A stretch of 64,000 nt of DNA from Candidatus Moraniibacteriota bacterium (GCA_018061645.1 JAGOTT010000001.1:65090-129089), one strand, 5' to 3'; counted from the stretch's first letter, positions 5,178-31,193 are shown. A program made the numbers and translations. Notes: generated by a model not told the origin, from the sequence alone.

Positions 5178-5183
5178 GGAAGC

Positions 5184-7649: not shown

Positions 7650-7683
7650 AATGAAATTTGAAAAATCAAAAATAAGAATTATC

Positions 7684-7716: not shown

Positions 7717-7718
7717 TT

Positions 7719-10197: not shown

Positions 10198-10208
10198 TGC
10201 GGTGAAGG

Positions 10209-11654: not shown

Positions 11655-11677
11655 ACAATAAGCGTGAACGAAAGGAT

Positions 11678-12634
11678 ATGAAGATTCTCATCACCGGAGG
11701 AGCGGGATTCATCGGCAGCGCGACCGCCAAGAAACTCATGGACCGCGGGGACAAGGTCGTCCTTATCGACAACTTCAACGACTACTACGACCCGAAACTG
11801 AAGCGCGACCGCATTTCGAAATTCCTCAAGGACTACAAGGGACGATTTACCCTCTACAAGGGTGATATCCGAGATGCGAAATTTCTCGACCGCGTCTTCA
11901 GGAAAGAGAAGCCTGCGAAGGTGCTCAATCTCGCCGCGATGGCCGGTGTACGGAGCTCGCTTGAGGATCCATGGCTCTATGCCGACGTGAACGTGATGGG
12001 ATTCGTCACGCTTCTCGAGACGGCGGTCACATACAAGGTGAAGAACTTCGTCTACGCCTCCTCCTCGTCCGTCTACGGCAACAACACGAAAACACCCTTC
12101 GCCGAGACCGATACCGTCGATACTCCGATTTCTCCCTATGCCGCGACCAAGCGGGCGAACGAGCTCATCGCACATACCTACAGCCACATCTACAAGCTCC
12201 CGACGACGGGTCTGCGCTACTTCACCGTCTACGGTCCGTGGGGGCGCCCGGATATGGCGCTCTACAAGTTCGTGACGAATACCATCGAGGGGAAGCCGAT
12301 CGATGTCTACAACAAGGGAAAAATGTCCCGCAATTTCACCTATATCGACGATATCGTCTCGGGAACGATCATCGCGCTTGACACGCCGCAGCCGTACTCG
12401 ATCATGAACATCGGCGGAGACAAGGAAGAGACGCTCATGCGCTTCATCGAGGTCATCGAGCAGTGCGTCGGGAAAAAGGCGAAGAAACGGATGCTTCCGA
12501 TCCAGCCCGGCGACGTCCCGTCGACCGTCGCGGACATCTCCAAACTCCGTGCGCTCGGCTGGAAGCCGACCACCCGCATCGAGGAAGGTATCAAGAACTT
12601 CGTCGACTGGTATCGGGGATACTACAAGGTGTAG
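11678..12634 (+). CDS. NAD-dependent epimerase, UDP-glucuronate 4-epimerase-like
   Basis: MKILITGGAGFIGS Rossmann N-terminus, RBS aaagga upstream; motif GLRYFTVYGPWGRPDMA characteristic of UDP-GlcA epimerases (Cap1J/WbnF-like). Confidence 0.8.
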   Translation: MKILITGGAGFIGSATAKKLMDRGDKVVLIDNFNDYYDPKLKRDRISKFLKDYKGRFTLYKGDIRDAKFLDRVFRKEKPAKVLNLAAMAGVRSSLEDPWLYADVNVMGFVTLLETAVTYKVKNFVYASSSSVYGNNTKTPFAETDTVDTPISPYAATKRANELIAHTYSHIYKLPTTGLRYFTVYGPWGRPDMALYKFVTNTIEGKPIDVYNKGKMSRNFTYIDDIVSGTIIALDTPQPYSIMNIGGDKEETLMRFIEVIEQCVGKKAKKRMLPIQPGDVPSTVADISKLRALGWKPTTRIEEGIKNFVDWYRGYYKV

Positions 12635-12679
12635 CCTCCTGCGCTATCCCAGCCGATACCTGTTCCCGCCCTTCTTCTG

Positions 12680-12706
12680 CTATTCTGAGCGTAGCGAAGA
12701 ATCCAG
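12680..12706. repeat. Family-1 repeat half-element (intergenic)
   Basis: ctattctgagcgtagcgaagaatccag. Confidence 0.6.
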
Positions 12707-12741
12707 TCTTTGAGAAACTTCCCAAAAAATGATTCTTTCGT

Positions 12742-13131
12742 ATGGAAAAAGATTTCGACGAGTGGAATTCGAAAAAGAAACAACTTGATGTTGTATCAAG
12801 GAAACTTCTTTTCAAGGAGGGTGAGATCTGGTGGTGCTCCATTGGCGTGAATGTCGGAGAGGAGGTTTATGGGAAAGGAGAATACTTCCGTCGTCCGGTC
12901 GTGATACTGCGGAAGCTCTCGGGGAATACCTGTATCGTCATGCCGACGACGACGCGGGAACGAAGTGGAAGCTGGTATCATCATCTGAATATCCGAAATA
13001 AGGACAGGTGGGTAATGATGAATCAGATTCGCCTTATTTCAGCGAACCGACTCTGGGTTCGTGAATCCACTTTGTCGAGAGAGGAATTTGAGGAATTAAA
13101 AAAGTCCGTAGCAGGACTGCTCGGACTTTGA
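12742..13131 (+). CDS. PemK/MazF-like endoribonuclease toxin (apparently solitary)
   Basis: 129 aa; GEIWWCSIGVNVGEE..RPVVIL and CIVMPTTTR / NQIRLISANRLW resemble PemK/Kid; no antitoxin ORF recognised nearby; low-GC surroundings. Confidence 0.55.
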   Translation: MEKDFDEWNSKKKQLDVVSRKLLFKEGEIWWCSIGVNVGEEVYGKGEYFRRPVVILRKLSGNTCIVMPTTTRERSGSWYHHLNIRNKDRWVMMNQIRLISANRLWVRESTLSREEFEELKKSVAGLLGL

Positions 13132-13255
13132 TAATTGGTCACCCCGCCGAGGCGGGGATCAGTGGGTAACCCCAAATGTACCATAATTATACGCCTTTTT
13201 TCGGTAAAGTCAAGTCCGTTAGTCAAATCGTCGTCTTGCGCTCGCCTCTTCAGCT

Positions 13256-13290
13256 TTTTCATTCCGAGCGAGTTCTCGAGTCGAGAAATC
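13256..13290. repeat. Family-1 repeat unit (intergenic)
   Basis: ttcattccgagcgagttctcgagtcgagaaatc, same subtype as 25921-25955. Confidence 0.6.
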
Positions 13291-13292
13291 TG

Positions 13293-13324
13293 AAAAATCC
13301 CCACACCATCCGTGGGGATTTTTG
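13293..13324. terminator. Rho-independent terminator-like hairpin (bidirectional)
   Basis: aaaaatccccac accatcc gtggggattttt: 12-bp stem, A-run before and T-run after. Confidence 0.55.
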
Positions 13325-13377
13325 TCTGCCTCGACTGATTTTGGTATTATGGAGAAGTAAATCGATAAGAAAATAAT

Positions 13378-13668
13378 ATGTTTTGGTCGAGTCCAAGCGC
13401 GGATATGGAAATCATGCTGTTCCTGCTCGTCGTATCGCTTGTGATAGCGGTTGCAGTTTATTCTTTCTCGAAGAGACTCCTCTGGTCGATATTTGCTTTT
13501 TCTGTGTTGAGTAATTTGGTATTTTATTTTGGGTTAGATTACAATTTGTCGGTTATTTATAATATTATTTGGCTATTTCATTTCACAAGAGATATTTATC
13601 CATATATAAATATCACGCTTTTGGCTCTGATTCTTATAATTCTTTTCAGAAAGAAATATGCGAAATAG
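13378..13668 (+). CDS. Small hydrophobic protein, hypothetical
   Basis: 96 aa, AT-rich region, 3 TM-like segments; weak. Confidence 0.3.
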   Translation: MFWSSPSADMEIMLFLLVVSLVIAVAVYSFSKRLLWSIFAFSVLSNLVFYFGLDYNLSVIYNIIWLFHFTRDIYPYINITLLALILIILFRKKYAK

Positions 13669-16531
13669 TATGGCTCGGCGCTGTGTGGTGCGGCTGCTTA
13701 TTGCTGTGCTGCTTTTTTTGCCGATTGTTCGAATAGGAGGTGATTTTGGTTCGGCTCATGCGGAAGAGGGGGATTGGTGGGCTGGGTACGAGGAAAACTA
13801 CGTCGTCATCCATCAAGATACTATCTGGAGCGGGAACATCACACGTGAGGATATCCCGAAGCCGGTCATGATCCTGAACGGGGCGACGCTGACCATCACC
13901 CCTGGGACGCACGTCGAAATCGATCGGATCACCGTGACCGACGGAAGGATCATCGCGAAAGGGACGGAGAGCGAAAAAATAGTTTTCACCAAGCAGGCGC
14001 CGGACTTTTCCTGGATGACGCCGGAGTACGAACAATACGATCGAGAGTGTTTCCCGTCGGCATATGCGAAGGGAATTATAGAGTTTTCCTCCTGGTCCGA
14101 TGTGGGTGACGAGGGCTTGTCGGTATTCCGCTATGTCGAGTTCGTTGGTATGGGAACGCATATCGTAAATGACGGGGAAAATTGTCCGGATTTTGCCATG
14201 CGGGACAAGGGTCTTCGCTCCTTGCTCGTGAACACCGCGCATGCTTCGGAGCCGATTATGCAGACCTCCCCCGCGATCCTATTCCATTCCGGGCAACTCC
14301 ACATCGAGAACTCCGTCTTCAGGAACGGAAACCATACCGATATCGAGACCGACATGCAGTTTGACGACAGGTGGGAGTCGTACGATTCCTTGCGCGTTGT
14401 CAACTCGAACTTCGAGGGAAATGGGCAGAACCTCGCCCTGATTTCGGCTTTCGAATACGACGGCGAACACGTGAAGGATTATTCCCATCACGTGCTTCTG
14501 AAGAACAACTGGTATGGAAGCCCGTACGGACCAAGTATCGGTTCGACGCAGGGATCGACGGACATCATCGCGATAGCAGGGGATTATCAGCTCGACGGAT
14601 GGAGGGAATCTGACCTCATCGCCGATCCGGTCGTCGTTATTCCTGGGATAACCGGATCCGCGAAGTTTCTTGACGAATGGGAACTGGATCCGATACTCCA
14701 TAAATACGACGATCTGATGTCCTCGCTCGAGAGGAATGGCTATCAGAAAGAAGTGAACCTGTTCCCGTTCCCGTATGACTGGCGCGTGACGAACAAGACC
14801 TCCGCGCTCTATCTGCAGGACAAGATCGAGGACGTGATCCAAAAGACCGGCGTGTCCAAGGTCGATGTCGTCGCACACTCCATGGGTGGGCTGGTCGCGC
14901 GGTCGTATGTTGAGGAACTCGGAGAGGCGCGGTATGCGGATACGATCGATCAGCTTATCACGCTTGGGACGCCGCACCGCGGGTCGCCGGAAGCGTATCT
15001 GAAGTGGGAGGCGGGCGAAGGATTTTTCAGAATAAGAGGCGCTCTTGCTCGCCATCATTTCGAACAGGAGGCTGAGGAGTCCGGATATGATGGTGATCTC
15101 ATGGGATATATTCGGGACAAGGTGGTTTCTGTCGGGGAGTTGCTTCCGGATGACGATTATCTTGTCGAAGTTTCGTCTGGGGAGACCAAGGGCTACCCGA
15201 CTGGGTATCCGAAGAATTCCTTTCTGGAAGACCTGAATGATCCAAACAATGTCTCAAAATTTGACGGAATACGCTTTGTGAACATAGTCGGAATTGACGA
15301 AGAAGATGACACGATATCAAGCCTTCGAGTGACCGGAAGTTCCGTTTCCGGAAAGTGGGAGCACGGGATGCCGGAGAATTTTTATGATGTCGAGACTAGT
15401 CGTGGCCTTGTTTTTGGCAAGGGGGATCAAACGGTTCCGGAGGCAAGCGCGAAAGGAATTGTAGCTGATGAAACGATCGAGGTTACAGCGACTCACAATG
15501 AACTCCCGACGAAGGCGCAGTGTGATGTATTCCGGAAGTTGACGGGTCAGCAGGAGTGTAACTATGACGAGGATATCCACATCTCGAACATTCTCCTCTT
15601 CAATGTCTTTTCCCCCGTCGATATCCAGGTGGTGTCGCCGAGCGGATTGAAGGTCGGGAAGGACTTCGACGGTGACGGGTTCCTGAATGAGCTTCCCGGC
15701 GCATACTATACCGGGTCGGATACGAAGAACGAATTCGTCACGATCCCGAATCCGGAAAACGGCGAGTATAGGATTCTCGCGCGTGGAACGGATGGCGGCG
15801 GAGTGTATCGGATTGAGACGACGAAGATTATGGAAGCAGCGGACGGTGACGCCACGGAATCAACCGCGGTAATAGAAGGTGAAGTGGTTGCTGGTGTGAT
15901 GGAGGAAGATATGACGGTCGCAGTTTCGGCAAACGCGGTCGAATTGAAGGACGAAGGTGGGGACATCATCGCGCCGACCGTCATGATCGTTACTCCGGAA
16001 TCGAAAACATACCACAATAGCGTCATGATTCCGGTCTCATATTCCGTTTCGGACGATGCCACTCCGAACGAGAAACTAGCGACAGTCGCTTCGCTCGACG
16101 GTGCGGCGTATGCGAAGTCCGATATCGATGCCGCACTTCTTCCGCTTGGCGCCCATGAGTTTTCCGTGAGTGCGACCGACGAGGTGGGAAATGTCGGCAC
16201 GGCGGAAACAACTTTCACTCTCGATACCTCTTGGGGCGCCCTGCTCAAAAATATCGACCACTACGCGGTACTCGGACTTCTCAAGAACAAAGGTGAGCGG
16301 CAGATGCTGAAGACACATATCCGGAACCTCGGTGAAACCGTTGAATTTCTGGAAAAATATGATGCGTTTTTCCGATTCCATCCGAAACTTCGCGATATCT
16401 TCGAACGTGAAATCACACACCAGCTTTCCATTCTTCAGAAATACGTGAATCAGAAATCCGGGAAATCAATCGACCCGATCGGAGCGGCTCGTCTCATCGA
16501 GAGCATGGAATTCTTGAAGAAAACACTATGA
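13658..16531 (+). CDS. Large secreted multidomain protein: beta-helix region + alpha/beta-hydrolase (PGAP1/lipase-like) + Ig-like C-terminal domains
   Basis: 957 aa; signal-like N-terminus; GxSxG nucleophile elbow VVAHSMGGLVARSYV and LITLGTPHRGSPEAY (DUF676/PGAP1-like lipase motifs). Confidence 0.7.
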   Translation: MRNSMARRCVVRLLIAVLLFLPIVRIGGDFGSAHAEEGDWWAGYEENYVVIHQDTIWSGNITREDIPKPVMILNGATLTITPGTHVEIDRITVTDGRIIAKGTESEKIVFTKQAPDFSWMTPEYEQYDRECFPSAYAKGIIEFSSWSDVGDEGLSVFRYVEFVGMGTHIVNDGENCPDFAMRDKGLRSLLVNTAHASEPIMQTSPAILFHSGQLHIENSVFRNGNHTDIETDMQFDDRWESYDSLRVVNSNFEGNGQNLALISAFEYDGEHVKDYSHHVLLKNNWYGSPYGPSIGSTQGSTDIIAIAGDYQLDGWRESDLIADPVVVIPGITGSAKFLDEWELDPILHKYDDLMSSLERNGYQKEVNLFPFPYDWRVTNKTSALYLQDKIEDVIQKTGVSKVDVVAHSMGGLVARSYVEELGEARYADTIDQLITLGTPHRGSPEAYLKWEAGEGFFRIRGALARHHFEQEAEESGYDGDLMGYIRDKVVSVGELLPDDDYLVEVSSGETKGYPTGYPKNSFLEDLNDPNNVSKFDGIRFVNIVGIDEEDDTISSLRVTGSSVSGKWEHGMPENFYDVETSRGLVFGKGDQTVPEASAKGIVADETIEVTATHNELPTKAQCDVFRKLTGQQECNYDEDIHISNILLFNVFSPVDIQVVSPSGLKVGKDFDGDGFLNELPGAYYTGSDTKNEFVTIPNPENGEYRILARGTDGGGVYRIETTKIMEAADGDATESTAVIEGEVVAGVMEEDMTVAVSANAVELKDEGGDIIAPTVMIVTPESKTYHNSVMIPVSYSVSDDATPNEKLATVASLDGAAYAKSDIDAALLPLGAHEFSVSATDEVGNVGTAETTFTLDTSWGALLKNIDHYAVLGLLKNKGERQMLKTHIRNLGETVEFLEKYDAFFRFHPKLRDIFEREITHQLSILQKYVNQKSGKSIDPIGAARLIESMEFLKKTL

Positions 16532-17529
16532 AGAAAATTCTTATCACCGGCGGGGCGGGGTATATCGGGTCGCATGCGGTCAAGCTCTTTCTCGAGAAGG
16601 GCTTTCCGGTTGTCGTGCTCGACAACTTCTCGCGCGGATACCACGAACCGATGGAGATACTCTCTACGAAGGGTAATCTGTCCGTTGAGGAATCGGATCT
16701 GCTCGACGCGGATGCCGTGAAGAACGTCTTCGCGCGGCACGATATCGGCACGGTGATCCACTTCGCGGCGCTCTGTCTCGTGAACGAATCGGTGGAAGAA
16801 CCGAACCGGTACATGAGGAACAATGTCGAAGGCACGCGGAACCTGCTCGAGGCGATGCGCGAAGCGGACGTGAAAAACATCATCTTCTCCTCGACCTGCG
16901 CGGTCTATGGTGAGACCAGGACGCTTCCGGTAGACGAGACGCACCCGACCGATCCCGTGAATCCCTACGGCGCCTCCAAGCTCGCGGCGGAAAACCTGAT
17001 CCGCGAATATGGCGAGCGATATGGCCTCCGATCCGTCATCTTCCGGTATTTCAACGTCTGCGGCGCAGCCGAGGATGGTACCATCGGTGACAGCAAGAAA
17101 CCGTCACAGCTCCTTATGCAGAACGCGGTGCGCGGTGCTATGGGTATCGAATCCTTCGCCTATACCTGTGCGACGGTCGATACGCCCGACGGTACGCCGA
17201 TCCGTGACTATATCGACGTCGAAGACCTCGTCGCGGCACATTTCGGAGGATACGGATATCTCGAGAAGGGCGGCGTGAGCGATGTTTTCAATCTCGGGAA
17301 CGGAAAGGGATTTTCGGTCAAGGAAATCGTTTCGGAAGTCGAGCGAATCTTCGGCACGACCATGGAAAAATTCCAAGCCGAGCCGCGCAAGGGGGAGTAT
17401 GCCAAGATATACGCCGACCCGTCGAAAGCGAGATCGGCACTCGGATTTTCCCCGAAAAAATCCTTGGCGGACAGTATCGAGAGTCTCCGGAAATGGTACT
17501 CCGGTCATCGTCAGGGCTACGGACGGTAG
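16528..17529 (+). CDS. galE: UDP-glucose 4-epimerase
   Basis: MKKILITGGAGYIGSH, YGASKLAAE (YxxxK), SDR extended family; 333 aa. Confidence 0.85.
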   Translation: MKKILITGGAGYIGSHAVKLFLEKGFPVVVLDNFSRGYHEPMEILSTKGNLSVEESDLLDADAVKNVFARHDIGTVIHFAALCLVNESVEEPNRYMRNNVEGTRNLLEAMREADVKNIIFSSTCAVYGETRTLPVDETHPTDPVNPYGASKLAAENLIREYGERYGLRSVIFRYFNVCGAAEDGTIGDSKKPSQLLMQNAVRGAMGIESFAYTCATVDTPDGTPIRDYIDVEDLVAAHFGGYGYLEKGGVSDVFNLGNGKGFSVKEIVSEVERIFGTTMEKFQAEPRKGEYAKIYADPSKARSALGFSPKKSLADSIESLRKWYSGHRQGYGR

Positions 17530-17542
17530 CGGATCCGCACCG

Positions 17543-17571
17543 TTGACTTGAATCGCGTTTCGTCGTATAAC
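17543..17571 (+). promoter_or_regulatory. Candidate sigma70-like promoter TTGACT-17-TATAAC
   Basis: ttgact 17543-17548, tataac 17566-17571; upstream of DUF218 gene with RBS ggaggg. Confidence 0.3.
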
Positions 17572-17602
17572 GAGACGTGTTCTTTTTTTGCAGGAGGGTG
17601 GG

Positions 17603-18169
17603 ATGCGAGCCGATGCGAAGTCTGGAACGAAAAAGAGCCGGATACTGTTCGTGCCCGGGCATCAGGAGATGGAATCGCCGGTCATGACGGAGCGATTGAA
17701 GGAGGCGGAGCGGCTCTGGTGGCAGGGAGACGGTCATTTGTACGACTACATCATCGTTTCCGGCGGTATCACGAGGCGGCGTCAGCTTGTCTCCGAGGCG
17801 GATTTCATGAAGAACTGGCTCGTGAGGCATGCGGGAATCGCTCCGGGGAACATCATTGCGGAATGCTGTTCCTGTGATTCCTTCGAGAACGTGCGGAACG
17901 TGGTGGAGGGATACCTGTGCGAACCCGCGTATCTCGCGAAGGATGTGGAGGTGGTCATCGTTTCCCAGTGGGAGCACGCGAACCGACTCCGGGTGACCTT
18001 CGAGGCGTATGGGATACGGGTCGGTATCTCGTCCGTCCCCGGATATTCCTTCTCACGGCGCCTGCTTGAATGGGGGTATCTCTATTACACTCTATACGAT
18101 CCGAAAGGAGAGAGCTGGTTTTCCAAATGGAAAGCCGACCGCGTTCGGAGAGCGATCGATGGATTCTGA
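17603..18169 (+). CDS. DUF218 (YdcF/SanA/ElyC-like) domain protein
   Basis: YIIVSGG...SEADFMKNWL...GIAPGNIIAECCSCDSFENV matches DUF218 core; start moved to second ATG after RBS. Confidence 0.65.
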   Translation: MRADAKSGTKKSRILFVPGHQEMESPVMTERLKEAERLWWQGDGHLYDYIIVSGGITRRRQLVSEADFMKNWLVRHAGIAPGNIIAECCSCDSFENVRNVVEGYLCEPAYLAKDVEVVIVSQWEHANRLRVTFEAYGIRVGISSVPGYSFSRRLLEWGYLYYTLYDPKGESWFSKWKADRVRRAIDGF

Positions 18170-18190
18170 TCACTCCTGCGGCAAACCCTG

Positions 18191-18910
18191 TCAGACACGA
18201 TGTCTGGCGGGGTCATTTTTTTTGAGAAGGTACGCCAGCTCCTCCTCGCGTTCGGGGTGGAAGATGTATTCGACGGAGACCCCGTCCGGAAGCGATTCCA
18301 TGTGTCGCCCGATATCCAGACCCGGGAGCCAATCCGCGCTTATGAGGTAGTCCGACGTGTCGAGTCCGGAGACACGGAATGCCTTCCGATTCAGGAACCG
18401 GAGTCTATCAAGCACGATCGGAACCGGACGGAGTATGCCTGATCGGTGACGACCGAAGCGGACATGTCCGATGCCGTATTTTTTCGCGAGACCGACGAGA
18501 ATGGTAAAATAGGAGGGGAAGAAGTGCACGTGCTCGTGGGAGTTGAGCCCGTCGGGAAGACGGCCGAACTGTTTTTGAAACGCGAGGATCTGCTCCTCCC
18601 ATGTCGCGCGAACCGACTTCGGTGACAGCTCTCCCGTGATGTGTCCGGCAAGGAACGTCGTGATCCTTCCGAAAAAACTTCCGCGAAGTTCCCTCGAGTC
18701 CGGAATGACCGGATTCCGATCCAGATGGATATCGATTTTTACTCCGGAGTTCAAAAGGAAAGAGACATCGTTCGGTGTGACCGACCCGTGCGGCATGACG
18801 GCGACCCGGTCGACGGCACCCGCCTGGATGAGGGTGCGTGCGGCTTCGTTCATCTTCTCGCTTATCCCGAAATCGTCGATGGTGATGATGCAGTTTCTCA
18901 TATCTTCCAC
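18191..18910 (-). CDS. YdjC/ChbG/HpnK-family carbohydrate deacetylase-like protein
   Basis: N-terminal IITIDDFGISEKMNEAARTLIQAGAVDRVAVMP typical of YdjC family. Confidence 0.7.
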   Translation of the reverse strand: MEDMRNCIITIDDFGISEKMNEAARTLIQAGAVDRVAVMPHGSVTPNDVSFLLNSGVKIDIHLDRNPVIPDSRELRGSFFGRITTFLAGHITGELSPKSVRATWEEQILAFQKQFGRLPDGLNSHEHVHFFPSYFTILVGLAKKYGIGHVRFGRHRSGILRPVPIVLDRLRFLNRKAFRVSGLDTSDYLISADWLPGLDIGRHMESLPDGVSVEYIFHPEREEELAYLLKKNDPARHRV

Positions 18911-18995
18911 TCTATCATATTTATGCTTATTCTCGCTATTTTCGTTGTTATAGGGGCGGGAATGTGGTAGAAAGGAAGAGAAATAAAGGAATCAG

Positions 18996-19727
18996 ATGGA
19001 CACGAGGACAATCTCCGTGGTCGTTCCCTGTTTCAACGAAGGGAAACGGGTATATCGGAATATCGCGAAAATTCGAGAGTTTCTCTCGAAGCGTTTTTCG
19101 TCGTTTCAGATCATCGCGGTGAACGACGGGAGCACCGACGACACGCTCACCGAGCTTGCCCGGGCGGAGCGGGATTTTTCCATCACCGTCATCGACCGGA
19201 AGCGAAACGGAGGCAAGGGAAAGGCGGTGCGTGCCGGGGTGCTGCGAGCGACCGGGGATGTCGTCATGTTTCTCGACGCGGATCTCGGCATACCGATAGG
19301 GAGCCTGGATGAATTCCTTCCCGAGCTCGACAAGGGGGCGGATATCGTCATCGCGTCGCGGATGGTCCCGGGGCTGCGCGTCGCGCGACCGGTCCGCGTG
19401 CACCGTCGATTCATGGAACGGATTTTCCGCCTCCTCCGTATCGCGATCATCGGCAACCCGAAGATACGCGATACCCAGTGCGGGTTCAAGGTCTTCACGA
19501 GGGAAGCCGCGGCGGATATCTTTCCACTACTCACCATCGACCGTTTCGCTTTCGATGCCGAGATCGTCTTCATCGCGGGGATGCTTGGGTACCGCGTGCG
19601 GGAGATGCCGATCGTCCTCCAGAATCCGGTCCGGACGAGCGTCCGGATCTTCCTGGACCCGATCAACATGATCGCCGACCTCTTCCGTATCCGTTGGAAC
19701 GGACTGACCGGAAAATACCGGAGATAG
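18996..19727 (+). CDS. GT2 polyprenol-phosphate glycosyltransferase (DPM1/dolichyl-phosphate glucosyltransferase-like)
   Basis: ISVVVPCFNEGKRV, AVNDGSTDDT, FLDADLGIP, IVIASR; 243 aa soluble-type; last 12 codons lie in 40-bp direct repeat. Confidence 0.8.
   Translation: MDTRTISVVVPCFNEGKRVYRNIAKIREFLSKRFSSFQIIAVNDGSTDDTLTELARAERDFSITVIDRKRNGGKGKAVRAGVLRATGDVVMFLDADLGIPIGSLDEFLPELDKGADIVIASRMVPGLRVARPVRVHRRFMERIFRLLRIAIIGNPKIRDTQCGFKVFTREAAADIFPLLTIDRFAFDAEIVFIAGMLGYRVREMPIVLQNPVRTSVRIFLDPINMIADLFRIRWNGLTGKYRR
19683..19722. repeat. 40-bp direct repeat copy 1 (left boundary of AbiE island)
   Basis: ttccgtatccgttggaacggactgaccggaaaataccgga, identical to 21394-21433; followed by ttacgtaa palindrome. 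Confidence 0.85.
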
Positions 19728-20015
19728 TTACGTAAGTGTACTTAAAACAGAGAAGCCCCCAAAGAGTTTTAAGTATGAAGAAGATATGCCAAGAGCGTTA
19801 TGCTGCCACACCTCGAGCGGAAGGATGAATATGCCGTCGTAGAGCAATTTTCCTTATTATGCATTGGCAGTCAATGCAGTAAACCACTAAGCAAAGCAAA
19901 AGAACTTCACGCGGGATTATTTTGAGTTTAGCCTTATGAATCGCTTTACAAAATTGGGTTTTTATTATAAAATAGTGTACAGTAGTAAGTTTAAAGCTAA
20001 CAACCAGTAACTATT

Positions 20016-20612
20016 ATGGATAAAAAGCCAAAAAAAGGTGAATACATAGAGATCATATTACGATCTCAAAAAACGGTCTTCTCTACGAAAGACATTGCTT
20101 TGTTGTGGGGTGAAAGAGTGAACGTCTCTGTTCGTGTGAGACTTTCTGATTATGTGAAAAATAAAAAGTTGATCAGAGTTCGTCAGGGTATTTACGTCAA
20201 AGATAACAATTATGATCGACAGGAATTAGCGACTCGAATTTATACCCCGGCATATATCAGCTTTGAAACCATATTGACTCGAACAGGAATAAACTTTCAA
20301 TATTACGGAAACATTTTTGTTGCTTCCTATGTCACCAGAGAGATTGAAATTGATGGACAAAAAATAAATTTCGTGAGAATGAAGGATTATGTGTTGAGCA
20401 ATACGATCGGAATTGAAGAGCAGGACAACGTAGCCAGAGCGACCAAGGAACGCGCATTTCTTGATAGGGTATATATCAGCAAAGATTATCACTTCGACCA
20501 CTTGAATGTTCTGGATTGGGACAAGGTTTTTGAAATTTTGCCAATCTATCGTAACGAAAAAATGAACAAGAAAGTGGAGGAGTATTACCAATCATACAAA
20601 GAAACACTATGA
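20016..20612 (+). CDS. AbiEi-like antitoxin/transcriptional regulator (type IV TA, abortive infection)
   Basis: 198 aa; translationally coupled (ATGA overlap) to DUF1814 nucleotidyltransferase; AbiEi_4-like composition. Confidence 0.55.
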   Translation: MDKKPKKGEYIEIILRSQKTVFSTKDIALLWGERVNVSVRVRLSDYVKNKKLIRVRQGIYVKDNNYDRQELATRIYTPAYISFETILTRTGINFQYYGNIFVASYVTREIEIDGQKINFVRMKDYVLSNTIGIEEQDNVARATKERAFLDRVYISKDYHFDHLNVLDWDKVFEILPIYRNEKMNKKVEEYYQSYKETL

Positions 20613-21304
20613 CCATTGATTATCCAAAACACAGAAATATCCTCCTACAGATATTGAAAGATATTTTTTCCGACACATCTATAGCCCCATTCTTAGGATT
20701 CAAGGGTGGTACAGCTGCTTTGATGTTCTATGATCTGGATCGCGATTCTGTCGATATCGATCTCGACTTATTAGACGAAAGCAAGGAGCAAGAGGTGTTT
20801 GAAAAGATTCAAAAGATAGTTGCTCGTTACGGCAAGATGATTGATTCAAAAATGAAACGATTCAATCTTGTGGTTGTCATATCGTATGCGGAGAAATCTC
20901 AGAATATCAAGGTTGAAGTAAGCCGTCGGAATTTTGGTTCAAAATACGAGTCAAAAACACTTTTGGGCATCCCGATGCTCGTCATGGTTCAGGAAGATAT
21001 GTTTGCCAATAAATTGATGGCAATGTATGAACGGATTGGCAAGACGAGTCGAGACGTGTATGATGTGTATTTTTTTGCGAAAAATCGTTGGTCAATAAAC
21101 AAGACATTGGTTGAGAATCGAGCTAATATTCCGTATAAAGAGCTATTGACAAAGTGTATCCAGCTATTGGAAAAAATGGATAATCGTCATATTCTCGATG
21201 GTCTCGGCGAAATGCTTTCCGAACCAAAGAAAGATTGGGCTCGAGCAAAACTTCGGACAGATACTATTTTTCTCTTGGAAGTATTGAGAAGTTTCGAAGA
21301 ATAA
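20609..21304 (+). CDS. AbiEii/AbiGii-family nucleotidyltransferase toxin (DUF1814)
   Basis: 231 aa; motif GFKGGTAALMF and DIDLD typical of DUF1814 NTases. Confidence 0.65.
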   Translation: MTIDYPKHRNILLQILKDIFSDTSIAPFLGFKGGTAALMFYDLDRDSVDIDLDLLDESKEQEVFEKIQKIVARYGKMIDSKMKRFNLVVVISYAEKSQNIKVEVSRRNFGSKYESKTLLGIPMLVMVQEDMFANKLMAMYERIGKTSRDVYDVYFFAKNRWSINKTLVENRANIPYKELLTKCIQLLEKMDNRHILDGLGEMLSEPKKDWARAKLRTDTIFLLEVLRSFEE

Positions 21305-21393
21305 AAAGAAAGAGAACCATCGTTTTATCGGTCGATGCCCTCTTTCGGATACTGCGTTGATAGTATATGCCATCCCATAAAAAACAAAAACCA

Positions 21394-21433
21394 TTCCGTA
21401 TCCGTTGGAACGGACTGACCGGAAAATACCGGA
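21394..21433. repeat. 40-bp direct repeat copy 2 (right boundary of AbiE island)
   Basis: identical to 19683-19722. Confidence 0.85.
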
Positions 21434-21477
21434 AGGAGGTTACGTAACCGGTTACGTAATAACCAGCGATACCACCT

Positions 21478-22656
21478 ATGAAACGATTGATGGACACGGC
21501 GCGGCGGGTCGCGCGCGAACTTCGGAAAAACGATCTCCGGGATTTTACCCGGAAAGCCTGGTTCTATTCGTTCGGGAAGGGAAGAATGCTCTGGGCGCTC
21601 GATCCGGATGATTGGAAACGAAAGAAAGCGAAGGCAGCAGTATATTTTTCGAAGTATCCGGTCGGGAATGGAGGCGAACGACCGAATATCGTCTTCATCG
21701 TTCCGGGAACGTGGATTTCCGGCGGTATCGCGGTCATATTGCGGCATGCCAACCTGCTAAAGACACGCGGATATGACGTGACTATCGTCACCCAGGATCT
21801 CAAGGCTTCTTTTCCGTGGTATGCGGGACAGGATGTTCCGGTCGTGCCGATCGACCGGGTATGGGCGCTTCTTGGGAAAGGGATTGATATCCTCGTTGCG
21901 ACCGGGTGGAACTCCGCTCCGACCGTCGATCTGCTCCCGGCGAAACGGAAGATTTATTTCGTCCAGCTCGACGAGCGCCGCTTCTACGACGACGAAGCGA
22001 CGAAGAATTTCGTCGGGGAAACCTATCGGCTTTCTTTCGAATATGTCGTCATGGCGCGGTGGATGCAAGAGTGGCTCCGGGACGAATTCGGTCATGAGGC
22101 GGCCTATGTTCCGAACGGCCTCGATACGGACCGGTTCCGACCGACGGATCCCGTCGAGCCGAAAGATGTCCGCCCGCGCGTCCTGATCGAGGGGCCGATC
22201 GATATCCCGTTCAAGGGGGTTGCGGACGCGTACGAAGCGGTGAAGGATCTCGACTGCGATATCTGGATGGTGAGTAGTCGCGGGACACCTCCGCAGGAGT
22301 GGCGGTGTGAACGGTTTTTTGAAAGCGTACCGATCGACGATATGCCGGGCATCTATTCGTCCTGCGACATCCTGCTCAAGATGAGTACGGTGGAGAGCTT
22401 CGCATATCCGCCGCTCGAGATGATGGCCTGTGGCGGTGTCCCGGTCATCCTGCGGGTATCCGGTATCGAGGAATATGCGGAACACGACAGGAACTGTCTG
22501 ATTATTGAAACAAAAGAAGAAGCGCGGGCAGCCGTGGAGAAACTGCTCGACGATGCCGATCTGCGTGGCAGGCTTTCCGAAAACGGACTGAAAACTGCGA
22601 AAGAGTGGTCGTGGGACCGATCCGCCGAAGCGATGCGAAAGGTCATAGCCGGATGA
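21478..22656 (+). CDS. Glycosyltransferase (GT4-like)
   Basis: 392 aa; C-terminal ESFAYPPLEMMACGGVPV resembles GT1/GT4 E-x7-E region; RBS aggagg near possible internal start. Confidence 0.65.
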   Translation: MKRLMDTARRVARELRKNDLRDFTRKAWFYSFGKGRMLWALDPDDWKRKKAKAAVYFSKYPVGNGGERPNIVFIVPGTWISGGIAVILRHANLLKTRGYDVTIVTQDLKASFPWYAGQDVPVVPIDRVWALLGKGIDILVATGWNSAPTVDLLPAKRKIYFVQLDERRFYDDEATKNFVGETYRLSFEYVVMARWMQEWLRDEFGHEAAYVPNGLDTDRFRPTDPVEPKDVRPRVLIEGPIDIPFKGVADAYEAVKDLDCDIWMVSSRGTPPQEWRCERFFESVPIDDMPGIYSSCDILLKMSTVESFAYPPLEMMACGGVPVILRVSGIEEYAEHDRNCLIIETKEEARAAVEKLLDDADLRGRLSENGLKTAKEWSWDRSAEAMRKVIAG

Positions 22657-23341
22657 TCCGGATGCCGAGGGCGATACTGCCGACGACGAGGATGGTGAAG
22701 AGCGCCGCTATCGGCCACCCCTTGAGAAACCCGGGTTTGTATTGTGAGAGCCGGTCGAGAAGCGTACCGAGGTCGGCGCGGAGCGATCCTTCGGTATACG
22801 CGGGGCGGAGGAAGAGAGAGTGGCTCTCGTACGTCTTTCCTTTGTTGCTGTCGACGAGTGTCCGATCGGAAAATGCCGGATCCGGAGCGTCCGTCGCGGA
22901 AAGATACGGTTTGCCGCCCTTGCGGTTCTCATCGGAAAAATACGTCGCGACGAAACAGTATCGCTTTCCCATGGAATCCGATATGGACTCGAAGGGGAAT
23001 ACCGTGTACGCACCCTGTTTCCCTGGTTCTCCGGAGAAGCTGATGGAAGCGATTTCCGTATCGCATGCCTCGTCTTTGAGCTGGAATCCGATATGCTCCC
23101 CGCGGCGGATACTCGCGTTCCCGAGGACGACGCGGACCTGATGGAGACCGTTTTCGTGCGCGGTGAAGGTCTGCGAGACCGGCATCCCGGGAGAGAGGGT
23201 CACCTTCTTGGTTTTCCCGAGGAAATTGTATCCGGATTCGCCGATGCCGAAATCAGAAAGGAACGTCCAAAAAATCCCGACAATCCCGAGGAGGAATATC
23301 GTGGTAAGAAGGAGTTTTGATTTTGATGCCGGATGATTCAT
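22643..23341 (-). CDS. Membrane-anchored hypothetical protein (N- and C-terminal TM segments)
   Basis: 232 aa; convergent 14-bp overlap with preceding GT gene. Confidence 0.45.
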   Translation of the reverse strand: MNHPASKSKLLLTTIFLLGIVGIFWTFLSDFGIGESGYNFLGKTKKVTLSPGMPVSQTFTAHENGLHQVRVVLGNASIRRGEHIGFQLKDEACDTEIASISFSGEPGKQGAYTVFPFESISDSMGKRYCFVATYFSDENRKGGKPYLSATDAPDPAFSDRTLVDSNKGKTYESHSLFLRPAYTEGSLRADLGTLLDRLSQYKPGFLKGWPIAALFTILVVGSIALGIRIIRL

Positions 23342-23494
23342 GACCTCGAAAATGGGTTGGAAACAAGTGAATTATGACATACTACCGAGAAAGCGGGAAT
23401 ATCAGATCGGAGGTCGATTTCTGGGTGTTGACAGTGGTATTTTCAAGTAGTATCATGCTTATTGGGAATAACTACATATTTATTTCAAATAAGT

Positions 23495-24799
23495 ATGAAT
23501 AAATCTGAAATACTTGAGGTCCTGAAAGACTGGAATCTCTGGGAGAAACCATTGGAAGAGGGCATCTCGCGCCCGGAATACGTCGGGAAAATGCGCGAAC
23601 AGATAGCATCCGGACAGGTGCTTATCGTGACTGGCGCCAGAAGGAGTGGGAAGTCGTTTCTTATGCGACAGCTCGCGTCTTCGCTTTGCAGTGATGGTCT
23701 TAAGAAGAATCAGATACTCTTCGTGAATTTCGAGGATCCGCGCTGGATAGGCGCGGACGCGGTGTTGCTTGATGAGATATTCCATGTGTATCTGGAATTC
23801 GTTCGCCCCGAAGGAAAACCATATCTTTTTTTGGATGAGATTCAGGAGGTCGAGGGATGGGAAAAGTGGGTTCGTTCCATACATGAGCTCGGCAAGGCAA
23901 CGATCGTTCTTTCCGGATCGAACGCGAAGCTCTTGAGCCGCGAACTCGGGACGGTTCTCACCGGAAGACATGTGGATGTGACGGTATATCCACTTTCGTT
24001 TTCCGAATTCCTTTCCTTCAAGGGCATGGATGCTTCATCTGATCGGCTTGGCGGATATATGCGCGAATATGTCGAGCGAGGGGCTTTCCCGGCGCTGGTC
24101 GTTTCCGGAACGAGCGTTTCGGAATGGCTGTTGTCGTATTATGACGATCTTCTTGAAAAGGATCTTATCAGGCGATTCAAGGTTCGGAAGACCGAAGAGC
24201 TGAAATCGCTCCTCCGGTTTTACATGAGCAATATAGCGAAACCGACGACTTTCCACTCCGCTGGAAAATTTTTGGGCATATCTTCCGATACGACGGAAAA
24301 ATTCATGATTTATTTCGAACAATCGTATCTTCTGTTTCCGCTCCGGCGATTTTCTTCCGGGTTCAAGGGACAGCAGAAAAGCCCGCGGAAAATATACGCC
24401 GTGGATACGGCGCTTGCCCGTGTTAGCGGATTCCGCTCCGGAGAAGATTTCGGAAGAATGGCGGAAAACATAGTTTATCTCGAGCTTCTTCGCGGAAGGA
24501 TGCGATATCCGGAACGGGAATATTTCTACTGGAAAGACGAGCGGGCGGGACGTGATGGGGGCGAAGTCGATTTCGTGGTGAAAAGCGGTGCGGATATCGC
24601 GGAGATCATGCAAGTATGTATGGGGGATTTTCGGGGAGATGTACGGCGGCGCGAACTTCGAGCGATAAAAAAGGCTGCGGAACGGCTTCATCCGAAAAAG
24701 TGCACGGTCATCACCGAAGAATATTCCGGCACGGAGGAGTTCCCGTATGGCGAGGTTGAATTCGTTCCGCTTGAGAAATGGCTCGTCCGATCGAAGTGA
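23495..24799 (+). CDS. AAA family ATPase with DUF4143 C-terminal domain (AAA_14-like)
   Basis: Walker A VTGARRSGKSFLMRQL; Walker B LFLDEIQ; typical architecture of PF13173+PF13635 ATP-binding proteins. Confidence 0.75.
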   Translation: MNKSEILEVLKDWNLWEKPLEEGISRPEYVGKMREQIASGQVLIVTGARRSGKSFLMRQLASSLCSDGLKKNQILFVNFEDPRWIGADAVLLDEIFHVYLEFVRPEGKPYLFLDEIQEVEGWEKWVRSIHELGKATIVLSGSNAKLLSRELGTVLTGRHVDVTVYPLSFSEFLSFKGMDASSDRLGGYMREYVERGAFPALVVSGTSVSEWLLSYYDDLLEKDLIRRFKVRKTEELKSLLRFYMSNIAKPTTFHSAGKFLGISSDTTEKFMIYFEQSYLLFPLRRFSSGFKGQQKSPRKIYAVDTALARVSGFRSGEDFGRMAENIVYLELLRGRMRYPEREYFYWKDERAGRDGGEVDFVVKSGADIAEIMQVCMGDFRGDVRRRELRAIKKAAERLHPKKCTVITEEYSGTEEFPYGEVEFVPLEKWLVRSK

Positions 24800-24858
24800 T
24801 CCCAAGGACCGTCAGGTCTCTCCAAGGGTAAACAGGTATATTGTGCCGATGCCGTGCG

Positions 24859-24890
24859 CCTGTTAGCTGTTCCTTGTTGATTGTTTCCTG
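24859..24890. repeat. Family-2 repeat copy (cctgttagctgttccttgttgattgtttcctg)
   Basis: shares ttgttgattgtt / ctgtt...cctg core with 40272-40314 and 55820-55895. Confidence 0.5.
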
Positions 24891-24891
24891 A

Positions 24892-26655
24892 TTAGAGGTA
24901 GTATCTTGGAATAATCACATTCACGATCGCATAGAGCTGGAGGAGTATCATCGCGAGCGCAAGGATTTTCAAGATCATTTCAAAAGTCTTTTCTCCATCT
25001 GTCATTCTGAGCGTAGCGAAGAATCCCGTTCCTATTTTGTCATTCTGAGCGTAGCGAAGAATCCCGAGATTCCTCGATAGACTCGGAATGACAATACCCC
25101 TTACCCACGAAACCGCAATCCCGACCCCGACGACGACAAGCACCAGATGCCCGATAAGGTTCGGCAGGAAATACCGTCCCGGCTGTCCGATGAGTACCTG
25201 TCCGGTTGCGTCGAATACGCGCCAGTCGTAGAAACGGATGGCGAACTGGAGCGAAATAATCATCCCGAGAAAAAACACGAGATACTTCCGTTCCGGCACC
25301 CGCCCCACTTTGTCATTGCGAGGGAGCACAGCGACCGCGGCAATCCAGTCCATTTTTTTCAAAACAGGCGCCAATAAATACATAAGCACCGCCACAAATC
25401 CGACGATCTCGATCCAATTGATGACCGACAGGATCCACTCCGGAATCGGTGTGTCGAGCCATCCGAAGTTTCCCCAGTACGAAAGTAACGTGTCGCGGAA
25501 TTCTCCCTGACGCATGGTCTTGTCGAGATACTTACCAATCGATTCGAGAGGGGAGTCGAACTTTGATAGAGCGGTCGCATTGGTGATCCCGATAAGATAA
25601 TCCTTCGGCACTGCAAGCAGACCGAACCCGACCAGTGTGATGGTTGTAATTCCGAGATACGCGAAAAACTTTCGCACTTTGTCATTCCGAGCTTCCTTCC
25701 TGTCATCCCGAGCGTAGTCGAGGGATCTCGTATATCGCTGATACGCCCCCCACACAAACAAAGGATACAACGCGGCAACGAGCACGATCCCCGGACCCTT
25801 CGAGAGGAGTCCGAGCACCGCGGCGATGATTGCGATAATCGCCCACTTTGTCATTCCGAGCCCCCCGTCTGTCATTCTGAGCGTAGCGAAGAATCCCGTC
25901 CCTTTGGCGGCATCTCCTTCTTTGTCATTCCGAGCGAGTTTTCGAGTCGAGGAATCTACGCTTCGTAGAAACGAAACCCCCGCATACAGGAACAACGAGA
26001 ACGAGAAAATGAGCGCGACATCGATATTTACCTGCGCTGCGGTGATAGCGAACATCGGCTGAAAAGCGACCAGCGTAGTGAAGAGTAGTGAAGTCTTTTC
26101 CGAAAGCCCGATTTTTCGCACGGTCAGATACATGAGCAGGACCGTCGCCGCACCGAAGGCAACCCCAAGCATTCGCATCGAGAAAATTCTGGTGAAGATG
26201 CTCTCATCGGAGAAGAACCGCTCGAGCCACGACGCGAAAAGGTAATAAACGGATTTCGTGCCGGACGTAGCTGTCGGACTTACGTCGACGTATCGCTTCC
26301 AGTCGTTTTCAGTGATCTGCTTTTCCAGTGATTTATCGGAAAAATTCTGTATATTTTGTCGCTCGAAGGTGAGTTCGTTGAATTTTGCGATAGAAGCGCT
26401 TTGCACCATCTCTTCCGGAAGATTCGATGTCCGGATATCTTTTGCGTCGATGAAGTATTTTCCGCTTTCGTACGCATGTATTTCCCATGTCTTCTCCTTT
26501 GGTTCCGCCCAGTGCTGTGCGGTTCCGTAATGCACCTGCTCATCCGGATTCTGGAACATCGGAATGAGAAAGCTCAAAACGGCGCCTTCAACAGCGAAAA
26601 GCGCGAGCAATGCCGCGAGCCGCATATTTGGAGTGGATATTTGCGGAAGCCTCAT
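24892..26655 (-). CDS. Polytopic GT-C (PMT-like) membrane glycosyltransferase heavily invaded by in-frame palindromic repeats
   Basis: 587 aa; loop-1 motif NPDEQVHYG (PMT FDEVHF-like); contains at least 7 family-1 repeat units all read as ARNDK/GFFATLRMTD peptides. Confidence 0.55.
   Translation of the reverse strand: MRLPQISTPNMRLAALLALFAVEGAVLSFLIPMFQNPDEQVHYGTAQHWAEPKEKTWEIHAYESGKYFIDAKDIRTSNLPEEMVQSASIAKFNELTFERQNIQNFSDKSLEKQITENDWKRYVDVSPTATSGTKSVYYLFASWLERFFSDESIFTRIFSMRMLGVAFGAATVLLMYLTVRKIGLSEKTSLLFTTLVAFQPMFAITAAQVNIDVALIFSFSLFLYAGVSFLRSVDSSTRKLARNDKEGDAAKGTGFFATLRMTDGGLGMTKWAIIAIIAAVLGLLSKGPGIVLVAALYPLFVWGAYQRYTRSLDYARDDRKEARNDKVRKFFAYLGITTITLVGFGLLAVPKDYLIGITNATALSKFDSPLESIGKYLDKTMRQGEFRDTLLSYWGNFGWLDTPIPEWILSVINWIEIVGFVAVLMYLLAPVLKKMDWIAAVAVLPRNDKVGRVPERKYLVFFLGMIISLQFAIRFYDWRVFDATGQVLIGQPGRYFLPNLIGHLVLVVVGVGIAVSWVRGIVIPSLSRNLGILRYAQNDKIGTGFFATLRMTDGEKTFEMILKILALAMILLQLYAIVNVIIPRYYL
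25000..25094. repeat. Family-1 repeats: two tandem units plus inverted partner
   Basis: tgtcattctgagcgtagcgaagaatccc x2 (25000, 25039) then gagattcctcgatagactcggaatgacaa. Confidence 0.85.
25311..25348. repeat. Family-1 repeat unit
   Basis: tgtcattgcgagggagcacagcgaccgcggcaatccag. Confidence 0.75.
25678..25729. repeat. Family-1 repeat, two tandem left-arm units
   Basis: tttgtcattccgagcttccttcctgtcatcccgagcgtagtcgagggatctc. Confidence 0.75.
25846..25955. repeat. Family-1 repeat, three tandem units
   Basis: tgtcattccgagcc.., tgtcattctgagcgtagcgaagaatccc, tgtcattccgagcgagttttcgagtcgaggaatc. Confidence 0.8.
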
Positions 26656-30342: not shown

Positions 30343-30346
30343 ATAT

Positions 30347-31174: not shown

Positions 31175-31193
31175 AGATTATTTTTATGTCAAG

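Follow-up and report, generated by a model that had tools for sequence, protein, structure and literature searches.

An AbiE cassette inserted at a glycosyltransferase gene’s 3′ end, with duplication of 53 nt of target sequence, in a Candidatus Moranbacteria genome

Insertion of the AbiE Cassette and the Empty Site

We analyzed a 64,000-nt stretch of a Candidatus Moranbacteria genome, referred to below as the window, as one strand with coordinates counted from its first letter. A Pfam scan of its ≈50 largest non-overlapping open reading frames (ORFs) showed that the window contains one large glycosylation and envelope cluster. Within this cluster, a pair of genes of the AbiE family, abiEi and abiEii, lies in a foreign insert between a GT2 and a GT4-type glycosyltransferase gene. 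Comparison with a related contig in which the same site is empty shows that the AbiE cassette was inserted here with a 53-nt target duplication. The locus is probably best described as a self-contained AbiE cassette that was acquired horizontally through a recombinase-independent insertion of the long-target-duplication type, a description that we hold with moderate confidence.

The GT2 gene (18996–19727; Pfam PF00535, 1e-29; like all features of the locus described below, on the + strand) is intact and encodes a protein of 243 aa that ends in GKYRR. The closest homologs of this protein, P0121 (94%) and P0122 (93%), have the same length and the same YRR terminus. In these relatives, the GT2 gene is directly followed by a GT4-type glycosyltransferase gene, which in the window is found at 21478–22656 (Pfam PF00534, PF13524 and PF13692). 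P0122 is carried by L089, a 93.7-kb contig from the Joint Genome Institute (JGI) collection that is syntenic with the window. The gene order in L089 is DUF218, YdjC, GT2, a 392-aa GT4-type gene, a 232-aa ORF, an AAA_14/DUF4143 ATPase, and so on, with the GT4-type gene located at 8771–9949 and starting 38 nt after GT2. The contig carrying P0121 has the same 38-nt gap between GT2 and the next gene, a likeness that concerns gene spacing only.

On the left side, window positions 17750–19735 align to L089 positions 6756–8740 with 83% identity, and on the right side, positions 21394–24985 align to 8688–12278 with 92% identity. The two alignments overlap on L089 at 8688–8740, a 53-nt segment that is present once in L089 and twice in the window. 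Thus, the true target duplication is 53/54 nt, rather than 40 nt, and the adjacency of GT2 and GT4 together with the single copy of the repeat in L089 proves the insertion. The foreign DNA entered 8 nt 3′ of the stop codon of GT2, at a point that corresponds to the loop of a hairpin between the two genes. A first-pass annotation of the window had placed an AbiEi/AbiEii module at the GT2 3′ end and had called for a related genome with one repeat copy and GT2 followed by the next glycosyltransferase; L089 provides exactly that arrangement, and the spacing in the P0121 contig agrees with it.

Another contig, L090 (Logan SRR26425183), carries the GT2 gene of this relative and ends right after GATAGTTGCGTAA, the position homologous to the insertion point. 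This end may represent a branch in the assembly graph, i.e., a polymorphic site in that sample.

The same annotation had described a perfect 40-nt direct repeat, with the left copy in the 3′ end of GT2. This core is indeed found at 19683–19722 and 21394–21433, with a spacing of 1711 nt, and is the sole perfect repeat of at least 24 nt in the 64 kb; the other repeat families are short, of lower identity and similar to repetitive extragenic palindromes (REPs). The extent of the repeat had been underestimated, as it runs for 53/54 nt (19683–19735 and 21394–21447) at ≈93% identity and includes the first TTACGTAA unit. The left copy, which is collinear with L089 8688–8740, takes in the final 45 nt of GT2 with its stop codon and continues through TTACGTAA, the 5′ arm of the hairpin. 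The right copy is equal to it, except that AGGAGG (21434–21439) replaces GATAG. The copies thus agree at 48 positions, and their differences are confined to a single 6-nt block. The relatives carry GATAG, the form found in the left copy, and L089 differs from the window repeat at two of the 40 core positions. We also considered whether the repeat could be part of a longer tandem duplication of the GT2 3′ end, as the annotation had warned, and found that it is not.

The 1658 bp between the two copies (19736–21393) are absent from L089 and have a foreign composition. The insert has a GC content of 0.378, compared to 0.571 and 0.535 in the 3-kb flanks, and the GC profile lies at 0.35–0.40 across 19700–21350 and at 0.55–0.65 on either side. 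At third codon positions, the GC content (GC3) is 0.41 in abiEi and abiEii versus a host mean of 0.65. Codon usage differs likewise, with cosine similarities to the host of 0.69 for abiEi and 0.74 for abiEii, compared to a host mean of 0.90. The AT-rich character noted previously is therefore confirmed by quantitative measures, none of which matches the host.

The repeat extends into a hairpin of the GT2–GT4 intergenic region. At 21440–21459, after the right 40-nt repeat, there is a perfect 20-nt palindrome, TTACGTAACCGGTTACGTAA, as the first-pass annotation had reported, formed from two 12-nt units containing TTACGTAA. The window has three occurrences of this motif, none of them outside the locus (19728, 21440 and 21452), versus 0.25 expected, and none of 100 shuffled sequences reached three. 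A reading of the motif as a palindrome bound by protein is not supported by the relative: the L089 equivalent is TTGCGTAA, which is not palindromic as DNA. In L089, the hairpin region reads TTGCGTAACCGATTGCGTAA, and the + strand RNA folds as an 8–9-bp hairpin, preserved by two G-U pairs. Since the L089 sequence folds as RNA but is not a DNA palindrome, the comparison favors a hairpin in the RNA between GT2 and GT4, or else a tandem unit of 12 nt, over a palindromic protein-binding site under conservation.

The AbiE Genes and Their Predicted Function

The first gene of the cassette, abiEi (20016–20612), encodes a protein of 198 aa that is expected from its family to be an antitoxin and autorepressor. 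It matches the PADLOC AbiEi profile at 6.3e-55 over positions 3–182 of 186, in agreement with an AbiEi antitoxin, a type of protein with a winged-helix domain at the N terminus. The match to Pfam AbiEi_4 reaches 20 bits, under the cut-off of 25. The second gene, abiEii (20609–21304), encodes a 231-aa DUF1814 nucleotidyltransferase, predicted from its family to be the toxin, which matches PF08843 (4.8e-16; 59.9 bits versus a cut-off of 22.5) and the PADLOC AbiEii profile (1.6e-76; positions 3–227 of 231). The genes form a bicistronic unit with the antitoxin gene first and a 4-nt ATGA overlap. PADLOC, Pfam and the overlap all agree with the previous identification of a translationally coupled AbiEi-like regulator and DUF1814 nucleotidyltransferase.

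In AbiEii proteins, the motifs hG[G/S]x(n)DhD with an associated Arg, KLxAaxxR and +DxxD are needed for GTP binding and toxicity (Dy et al. 2014; PMC3985639). The corresponding residues in the window protein are KGG(33-34)...R45-D-S-V-D49-I-D51, K135-LMAMYE-R142 and R148-D149-VY-D152. Residues G33, G34, R45, S47, D49, D51, K135, R142, R148, D149 and D152 show no variation across 30 homologs. G34 and D49 are separated by 14 residues, fewer than the x15 reported for the family. Residue S47 is in register with the phospho-acceptor T65 of Streptococcus agalactiae AbiEii (R63-x-T65-x-D67-x-D69), in terms of sequence, not of a structural alignment. A 2026 preprint reported that AbiEi neutralizes AbiEii by inducing auto-phosphorylation at the T65 residue. 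Judged by these sequence features, the AbiE module in the window looks functional.

By analogy with the family, AbiEii would act as a nucleotidyltransferase that blocks translation, and AbiEi would bind AbiEii and induce its inactivating auto-phosphorylation. AbiEi may also repress the operon via a palindrome (see below), and phage infection or loss of the cassette would free the AbiEii toxin. The window system resembles AbiE of Lactococcus and S. agalactiae, as well as the related MenAT of Mycobacterium tuberculosis, in its overlapping bicistronic operon with the antitoxin gene first, in the DUF1814 nucleotidyltransferase with motifs I–IV and a Ser/Thr at the phospho-acceptor position, and in its occurrence on horizontally moving DNA. 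An inverted repeat near its promoter is a candidate counterpart of the element present there in those systems. Unlike them, the window cassette belongs to a separate subfamily with a very wide distribution among Patescibacteria.

Promoter and Candidate Operator

The best promoter-like site in the region is located at 19945–19973, upstream of abiEi, and consists of TTTACA (−35 box, 19945–19950) and TAAAAT (−10 box, 19968–19973) separated by a 17-nt spacer, with 10 of 12 positions matching. These elements have the same placement in 69 related loci. Alignment of the 69 loci also revealed a 31-nt palindrome conserved in the family (19978–20008; consensus ACTGGAAGTAAGCTTTAAGCTTACTTCCAGT) between the −10 box and the start codon. 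The window copy is degenerate, with ≈8 of the 12 inner positions symmetric by eye. Across the 69 loci, 82.6% of the cells in the two halves were complementary, compared to 26–50% when the partner was slid out of register. There were 118 double changes versus 50 in shuffled alignments, and the covariation score was 0.31 versus 0.14, with none of 500 shuffles as high.

The first-pass annotation had suggested a different hairpin, at 19860–19878, as the autoregulatory operator. That hairpin is not part of the conserved cassette, and its fold is no more stable than those of shuffled sequences (z = −1.4); we have rejected it. The covarying palindrome at 19978–20008 is the better candidate for the AbiEi operator; a hairpin in the 5′ leader RNA would fit the covariation equally well. 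In S. agalactiae, the AbiE operator consists of two 23-bp inverted repeats placed 3 bp apart (PMC3985639), whereas the Patescibacteria subfamily has a single 15+1+15 palindrome 3′ of the −10 box. The analysis thus yields a candidate operator or leader element for a very large and uncharacterized AbiE subfamily.

The remainder of the insert consists of two spacers. The left spacer (19736–19944) has a GC content of 0.42 and, in fold and inverted-repeat scans, displayed a hairpin with 10-bp arms at 19739–19775 in addition to that at 19860–19878. The right spacer (21305–21393) forms a stable hairpin just 3′ of the abiEii stop codon, at ≈21308–21346 (−18.3 kcal/mol, z = −2.45). Comparison with 86 other loci (up to L090) and with the remaining window sequence gave no convincing homologs of either spacer, and an Rfam scan of 19500–21700 gave no match at E ≤ 1.

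Related Cassettes and Their Flanking Repeats

The AbiEii subfamily comprises thousands of homologs at 64–89% aa identity across many classes of the Candidate Phyla Radiation (CPR), including Moran-, Falkow-, Buchanan-, Gracili-, Uhr-, Kaiser- and Saccharibacteria. At the DNA level, the window resembles the loci with its closest cassette relatives (L003, L004 and L006) only between ≈19934–19983 and ≈21282–21306, an interval bounded by the −35 box and the end of abiEii. The sequences thus delimit the cassette as a conserved unit of promoter, putative operator and two genes, the flanks of which are not conserved among relatives.

To describe these flanks, 1.5 kb 5′ of abiEi was compared with 1.5 kb 3′ of abiEii in every locus, using a threshold of at least 40 bits and, as controls, the inverted orientation and pseudo-cassettes displaced by 3–4 kb in the same loci. 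A first set comprised 78 loci: the window itself and 77 related loci, drawn from GTDB genomes and, in three cases, from exact-protein look-ups. Flanking direct repeats were present in 21 of the 78, compared to 4 of 78 in the inverted control and 2 of 53 in the displaced control. In five loci (L010, L018, L035, L037 and L079), the positive result arose from REP-like elements, tandem repeats or paralogous gene ends.

A stricter filter, which accepted only repeats scoring ≥40 bits and lying no more than 320 bp upstream and 400 bp downstream of the cassette, was passed by 11 loci: the window and L003, L004, L013, L015, L021, L030, L031, L037, L075 and L085. The repeat in L037 rests on tandem repeats. 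In the other loci, the repeats measure 135 nt at 96% identity (L003), 49 nt at 98% (L004), 48 nt at 96% (L013), 150 nt at 93% (L015), 44 nt at 93% (L021), 88 nt at 91% (L030), 44 nt at 91% (L031), 45 nt at 89% (L075) and 229 nt at 89% (L085). They are mutually unrelated, ranging from 44 to 229 bp, and consist of host-type sequence, such as a terminator, an intergenic region or a gene end. The L003 repeat differs from a perfect one in that its differences are clustered at one end of an otherwise identical 135 nt. The smallest inserts, of 1413 bp in L013 and 1412 bp in L021, extend from 15–19 nt 5′ of the −35 box to 9–18 nt 3′ of the stop codon.

L015 and L017 lie on the same contig and were counted once. 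This contig (JBDRFT010000036.1, 23.8 kb) has the cassette and its flanks mirrored at both ends, with 1–9326 reversed relative to 14509–23834, and its palindromic structure is probably an assembler artefact.

In L013, the cassette is located just 3′ of rpoC. No empty counterpart was found for this locus; its relatives are too diverged past the rpoC stop codon and have other cargo there. In three related Uhrbacteria, the site directly 3′ of rpoC holds three different cargoes: the AbiE cassette in L013 (5268–6776), a set of 378-aa, 244-aa and ThiF-domain genes in L171 (7027–10023), and a 23S_rRNA_IVP gene in L172 (4084–4705). The site looks like a hot spot for variable genes. Genes for 23S_rRNA_IVP (four-helix-bundle) proteins were seen beside variable cargo in the window (50292–50723), in L006 (3273–3626) and in L172 (4260–4613).

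In L004, positions 2900–6600 form an array of three cargo units, Fic, AbiE and SLFN/AlbA-HTH, between which the 3′ end of an epimerase gene (2900–2944, 4265–4325 and 5700–5774) and that of another ORF (4230–4278, 5923–5971 and 6549–6597) are each repeated three times. Such an arrangement could result if the same spot received insertions repeatedly, or if short homologies recombined. In the window, L003, L004 and L006, the cassette resides inside glycosylation, epimerase or PMT clusters; surface-polysaccharide loci may therefore include hot spots of recombination.

Insertion with Long Target Duplication

The term “insertion with long target duplication” was defined by Furuta, Abe and Kobayashi (2010; PMC2853133) for restriction–modification (RM) units, with Nobusato et al. 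(2000) cited there for the phenomenon. In these cases, a complete RM unit without mobility genes is flanked by a duplication of >30 bp that is single-copy in the empty genome. One example consists of a 46-bp repeat overlapping a gene 3′ end around a low-GC insert, and most examples were from naturally competent species. The authors proposed that double-strand breaks made by the RM system play a part, and that the units pass through a life cycle in which they are inserted, amplified and released (PMC2853133).

Measured against this definition, the window and L089 are a present/absent pair with both flanks aligned (83% left, 92% right), and a duplication of 53/54 nt, i.e., >30 bp, stands against one copy in L089. 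The unit is smaller than the 20 kb allowed (1658 bp) and complete, comprising only the promoter, abiEi and abiEii, with no mobile-element genes. The repeat is not a tRNA-derived att site, being made up of the GT2 3′ end and a hairpin arm. Since the cargo is AbiE, and not RM, the locus represents a variant of the phenomenon, rather than a member of the described RM set. In all papers examined that use the term, it refers to RM systems, and we found no report of it for AbiE or for CPR bacteria, with papers after 2012 surveyed by title and abstract only.

The cassette thus resembles the RM units in being a selfish gene unit without mobility genes, with a locus-specific duplication that overlaps a gene 3′ end, an insert GC content below that of the host, and a repeat length that varies between loci for one type of unit. 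It differs from them in that the AbiE toxin is a nucleotidyltransferase, not a nuclease, so that a double-strand-break activity cannot come from the cargo. Furthermore, the host is a CPR bacterium, and one copy of the repeat has a 6-nt block change. Minimal mobile elements, in which variable cassettes are swapped between conserved flanking genes in naturally transformable bacteria, offer another comparison. Like them, the AbiE cassettes are small defence or toxin–antitoxin cargo without mobility genes at apparent recombination hot spots flanked by conserved genes (glycosylation clusters and the site downstream of rpoC). The double-crossover exchange of minimal mobile elements makes no flanking direct repeats, however, whereas the window locus has a duplication.

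We envisage that a lower-GC member of the Patescibacteria donated the cassette to this 55%-GC Candidatus Moranbacteria genome. The cassette would have entered the loop of the intergenic hairpin, duplicating 53 nt, with GT2 keeping its ancestral 3′ end and the noncoding second copy placed 5′ of GT4. This insertion would have occurred without a cassette-borne recombinase, likely through host break repair or short-homology recombination of taken-up DNA. It could have proceeded by de novo duplication at a staggered break or by Campbell-type re-integration of an excised circle carrying one copy of the repeat.

Several observations weigh against insertion with long target duplication. The compact 6-nt block difference between the copies is not predicted by a fresh duplication followed by random decay, and fits better with two copies of different origin, whether joined by Campbell-type or by site-specific recombination. 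The empty site has been verified for the window locus only, and the search for recombinases spans 64 kb of the genome only. The 40-nt perfect repeat is shorter than many assembler k-mers, and the two junctions are known at the level of assemblies. The mechanism of the phenomenon itself was stated to be unknown (PMC2853133). Finally, flanking repeats of at least 40 bits were absent from a second set of loci. This independent set consisted of 80 loci from JGI metagenome contigs, 38 of which were non-duplicate with at least 300 bp on both sides; none of these 38 had such repeats, nor did the set 2 loci with short flanks. The frequencies in the two sets differ (p = 1.5e-4). When the sets were pooled, direct repeats were found in 21 of 116 loci, compared to 4 of 116 in the inverted control (p = 5e-4). 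Given the absence from the second set, repeat flanking is a trait of a minority of the cassettes, not the rule.

Alternative Explanations

Taken together, insertion with long target duplication gives the best account of the locus. Campbell-type integration is compatible with it for the arrival of this copy, an integrase acting in trans or a decayed island accounts for the data less well, and an assembly artefact is unlikely.

In the Campbell-type scenario, a repeat-flanked cassette in a conspecific strain looped out through recombination between its repeats, entered this lineage as DNA and was integrated when one crossover occurred within the 40 identical nt. We regard this as possible but doubtful. 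The 40/40 identity next to an allele-like 6-nt block would be expected if the copies came from different strains, and the two differences between L089 and the 40-nt core imply that such strain-level variants exist. The cluster of differences at the end of the L003 repeat is of a similar kind, and a cycle of excision and reinvasion has been proposed for repeat-flanked units (Furuta et al.; PMC2853133). We found no strain with the AGGAGG allele, and no circular junction, which is predicted to read ...AAAAACCA followed by the 53-nt segment and GTGTACTT... A scan of JGI metagenomes for the repeat, based on its encoded peptide FRIRWNGLTG[KR]YR, returned no matches; the scanned collection evidently lacks the sample of L089 itself, and the result is uninformative. 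A stretch of 40 nt is close to the lower limit for RecA-dependent recombination, which also counts against a single crossover. Most importantly, the scenario requires the same structure in the donor, so that it is incomplete, explaining how this copy arrived and not how the first duplication originated.

The first-pass annotation had read the repeats as attL and attR, the products of site-specific integration into the 3′ end of a gene. According to this model, a tyrosine or serine recombinase, supplied in trans or lost from a larger island, joined an attP carrying the 53-nt segment to an attB at the GT2 3′ end, with a crossover in or near TTACGTAA, and the repeat-bounded 1.7 kb is a satellite or a decayed island. 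The arrangement does resemble that of integrative islands, in which direct repeats rebuild the 3′ end of the target gene around AT-rich cargo: the repeat covers the end of GT2 and restores it. The 6-nt block would be natural if the right copy were the attP arm and crossover occurred in the 8-nt TTACGTAA, the units of which are unique to this locus in the window. The ≈300 bp of unexplained spacer (19736–19944 and 21305–21393) could be remnants of the island, and in L004, three cassettes are parted by repeated gene-end copies, as in a tandem array.

However, no integrase, recombinase or transposase domain was detected at E ≤ 1e-4 in the Pfam scan of the ≈50 window ORFs, so that the insert and the surrounding 64 kb are devoid of a candidate enzyme, as had been noted in the annotation for integrases. 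There is no tRNA or tmRNA gene in the 64 kb that could have served as a target. If the cassettes were moved by a recombinase, a common attP-like flank would be expected, and none is shared by the relatives; the repeats flanking them at other loci are unrelated in sequence and measure between 44 and 229 bp. In the empty site of L089, TTACGTAA reads TTGCGTAA and is not kept as a DNA palindrome. Moreover, no AbiEii relative was found among the 2.9 million viral contigs of IMG/VR, and a 40-mer from the left spacer was also unmatched there, which led us to reject phage carriage of the cassette. Compared to integrative islands, then, the locus lacks an integrase in the window and a conserved attP among related cassettes, its cargo is only 1.66 kb, and its target is not a tRNA gene. 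Site-specific integration is thus improbable, and a less likely explanation than Campbell-type integration.

An assembly artefact, in which a cassette from another molecule or strain was threaded into the contig through a shared 40-nt k-mer path or a loop in the graph, is very unlikely. The assembly graph is indeed ambiguous at k = 31. Logan unitig L002 matches precisely what lies between the collapsed nodes of the repeat (1731 = 1671 + 30 + 30 nt), and unitig L088 starts 30 nt inside the right repeat. The length and ends of L002 (1731 bp) are those expected from such a graph, and we rejected the idea that it is a circular element; no other short contigs with terminal repeats were found. The two unitigs are consistent with both junctions, and the cassette unitig carries host-type sequence of 52% GC from the repeat at both ends. 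The left junction is spanned by an independent NCBI contig, L001, in which GT2 is followed by GATAG-TTACGTAA and then by the insert, while GT4 is preceded by the AGGAGG variant. GATAG on the left and AGGAGG on the right identify two distinct junctions, rather than one collapsed site. Furthermore, the imperfect repeats at other loci (84–98% identity) cannot collapse in a graph, and a 1.7-kb circle without replication genes could not persist alone.

A non-autonomous transposon or element derived from an insertion sequence, to which direct repeats of target sequence around the insert would correspond, is close to refuted: no transposase domain was found in the ≈50 window ORFs scanned, no terminal inverted repeats join the insert ends, a 53-nt duplication is far beyond the lengths generated by transposases, the repeat length varies from 44 to 229 bp between loci, and the insert ends are not conserved between relatives. 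An integron gene cassette is not supported either, as no integrase was found in the scanned ORFs and the repeats are locus-specific host gene or intergenic sequence (this comparison used no formal attC model).

Implications for AbiE Cassettes in Patescibacteria

Bacteria of the CPR/Patescibacteria have tiny genomes with few recognizable mobile elements, and the exchange of defence genes among them is poorly known. The present locus provides a clean before-and-after case, in which a defence or addiction cassette has been placed in a surface-glycosylation operon, with no mobility gene and with the operon undisrupted. Tentatively, the AbiE cassettes of Patescibacteria might be regarded as minimal selfish mobile units of ≈1.41 kb (promoter, operator and two genes) that cross between distant CPR lineages by long target duplication, without a recombinase of their own, although we consider this generalization rather unlikely at present. 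If true, the mode of insertion would be independent of the DNA cutting by RM cargo and would represent a general route, driven by the host or by DNA uptake, for addictive gene pairs to enter small genomes. Should the pattern hold, long target duplication would extend from RM systems to a toxin that does not cut DNA. The only mechanism so far suggested for such insertions would then fall away, leaving repair by the host or the uptake of DNA as the more likely routes.

Other Features of the Window

The AAA_14/DUF4143 ATPase gene at 23462–24799, two genes 3′ of the insertion, matches the PADLOC candidate defence family PDC-S01 (1.2e-105). An ATPase of this type is found at the same place in L089, and the gene is thus outside the insertion.

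A 3.5-kb segment at 12631–16162, just 3′ of an epimerase gene, is also not shared by L089. It contains a PemK/MazF-type toxin gene at 12742–13131 (PF02452, 3e-13), which is flanked by REP-like copies at 12673–12711 and 13244–13291. These copies belong to a dispersed REP-like family around TGTCATTC(C/T)GAGCG(A/T)AGCGAAGAATCC, which occurs in both orientations; copies in the window were seen at 9547, 12673, 13244, 24995, 25033, 25675–25957, 37916, 42812, 56466–56995 and 57536. The motif is also present in the flanks of L035, where it gives the false appearance of flanking repeats around the cassette.

A second island of foreign composition is located at 29116–32315 and encodes a GT4 glycosyltransferase, a SAM-methyltransferase and another GT4 glycosyltransferase. 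Its GC content is 0.365–0.42 and its GC3 is 0.36–0.39, as low as that of the abiE genes.

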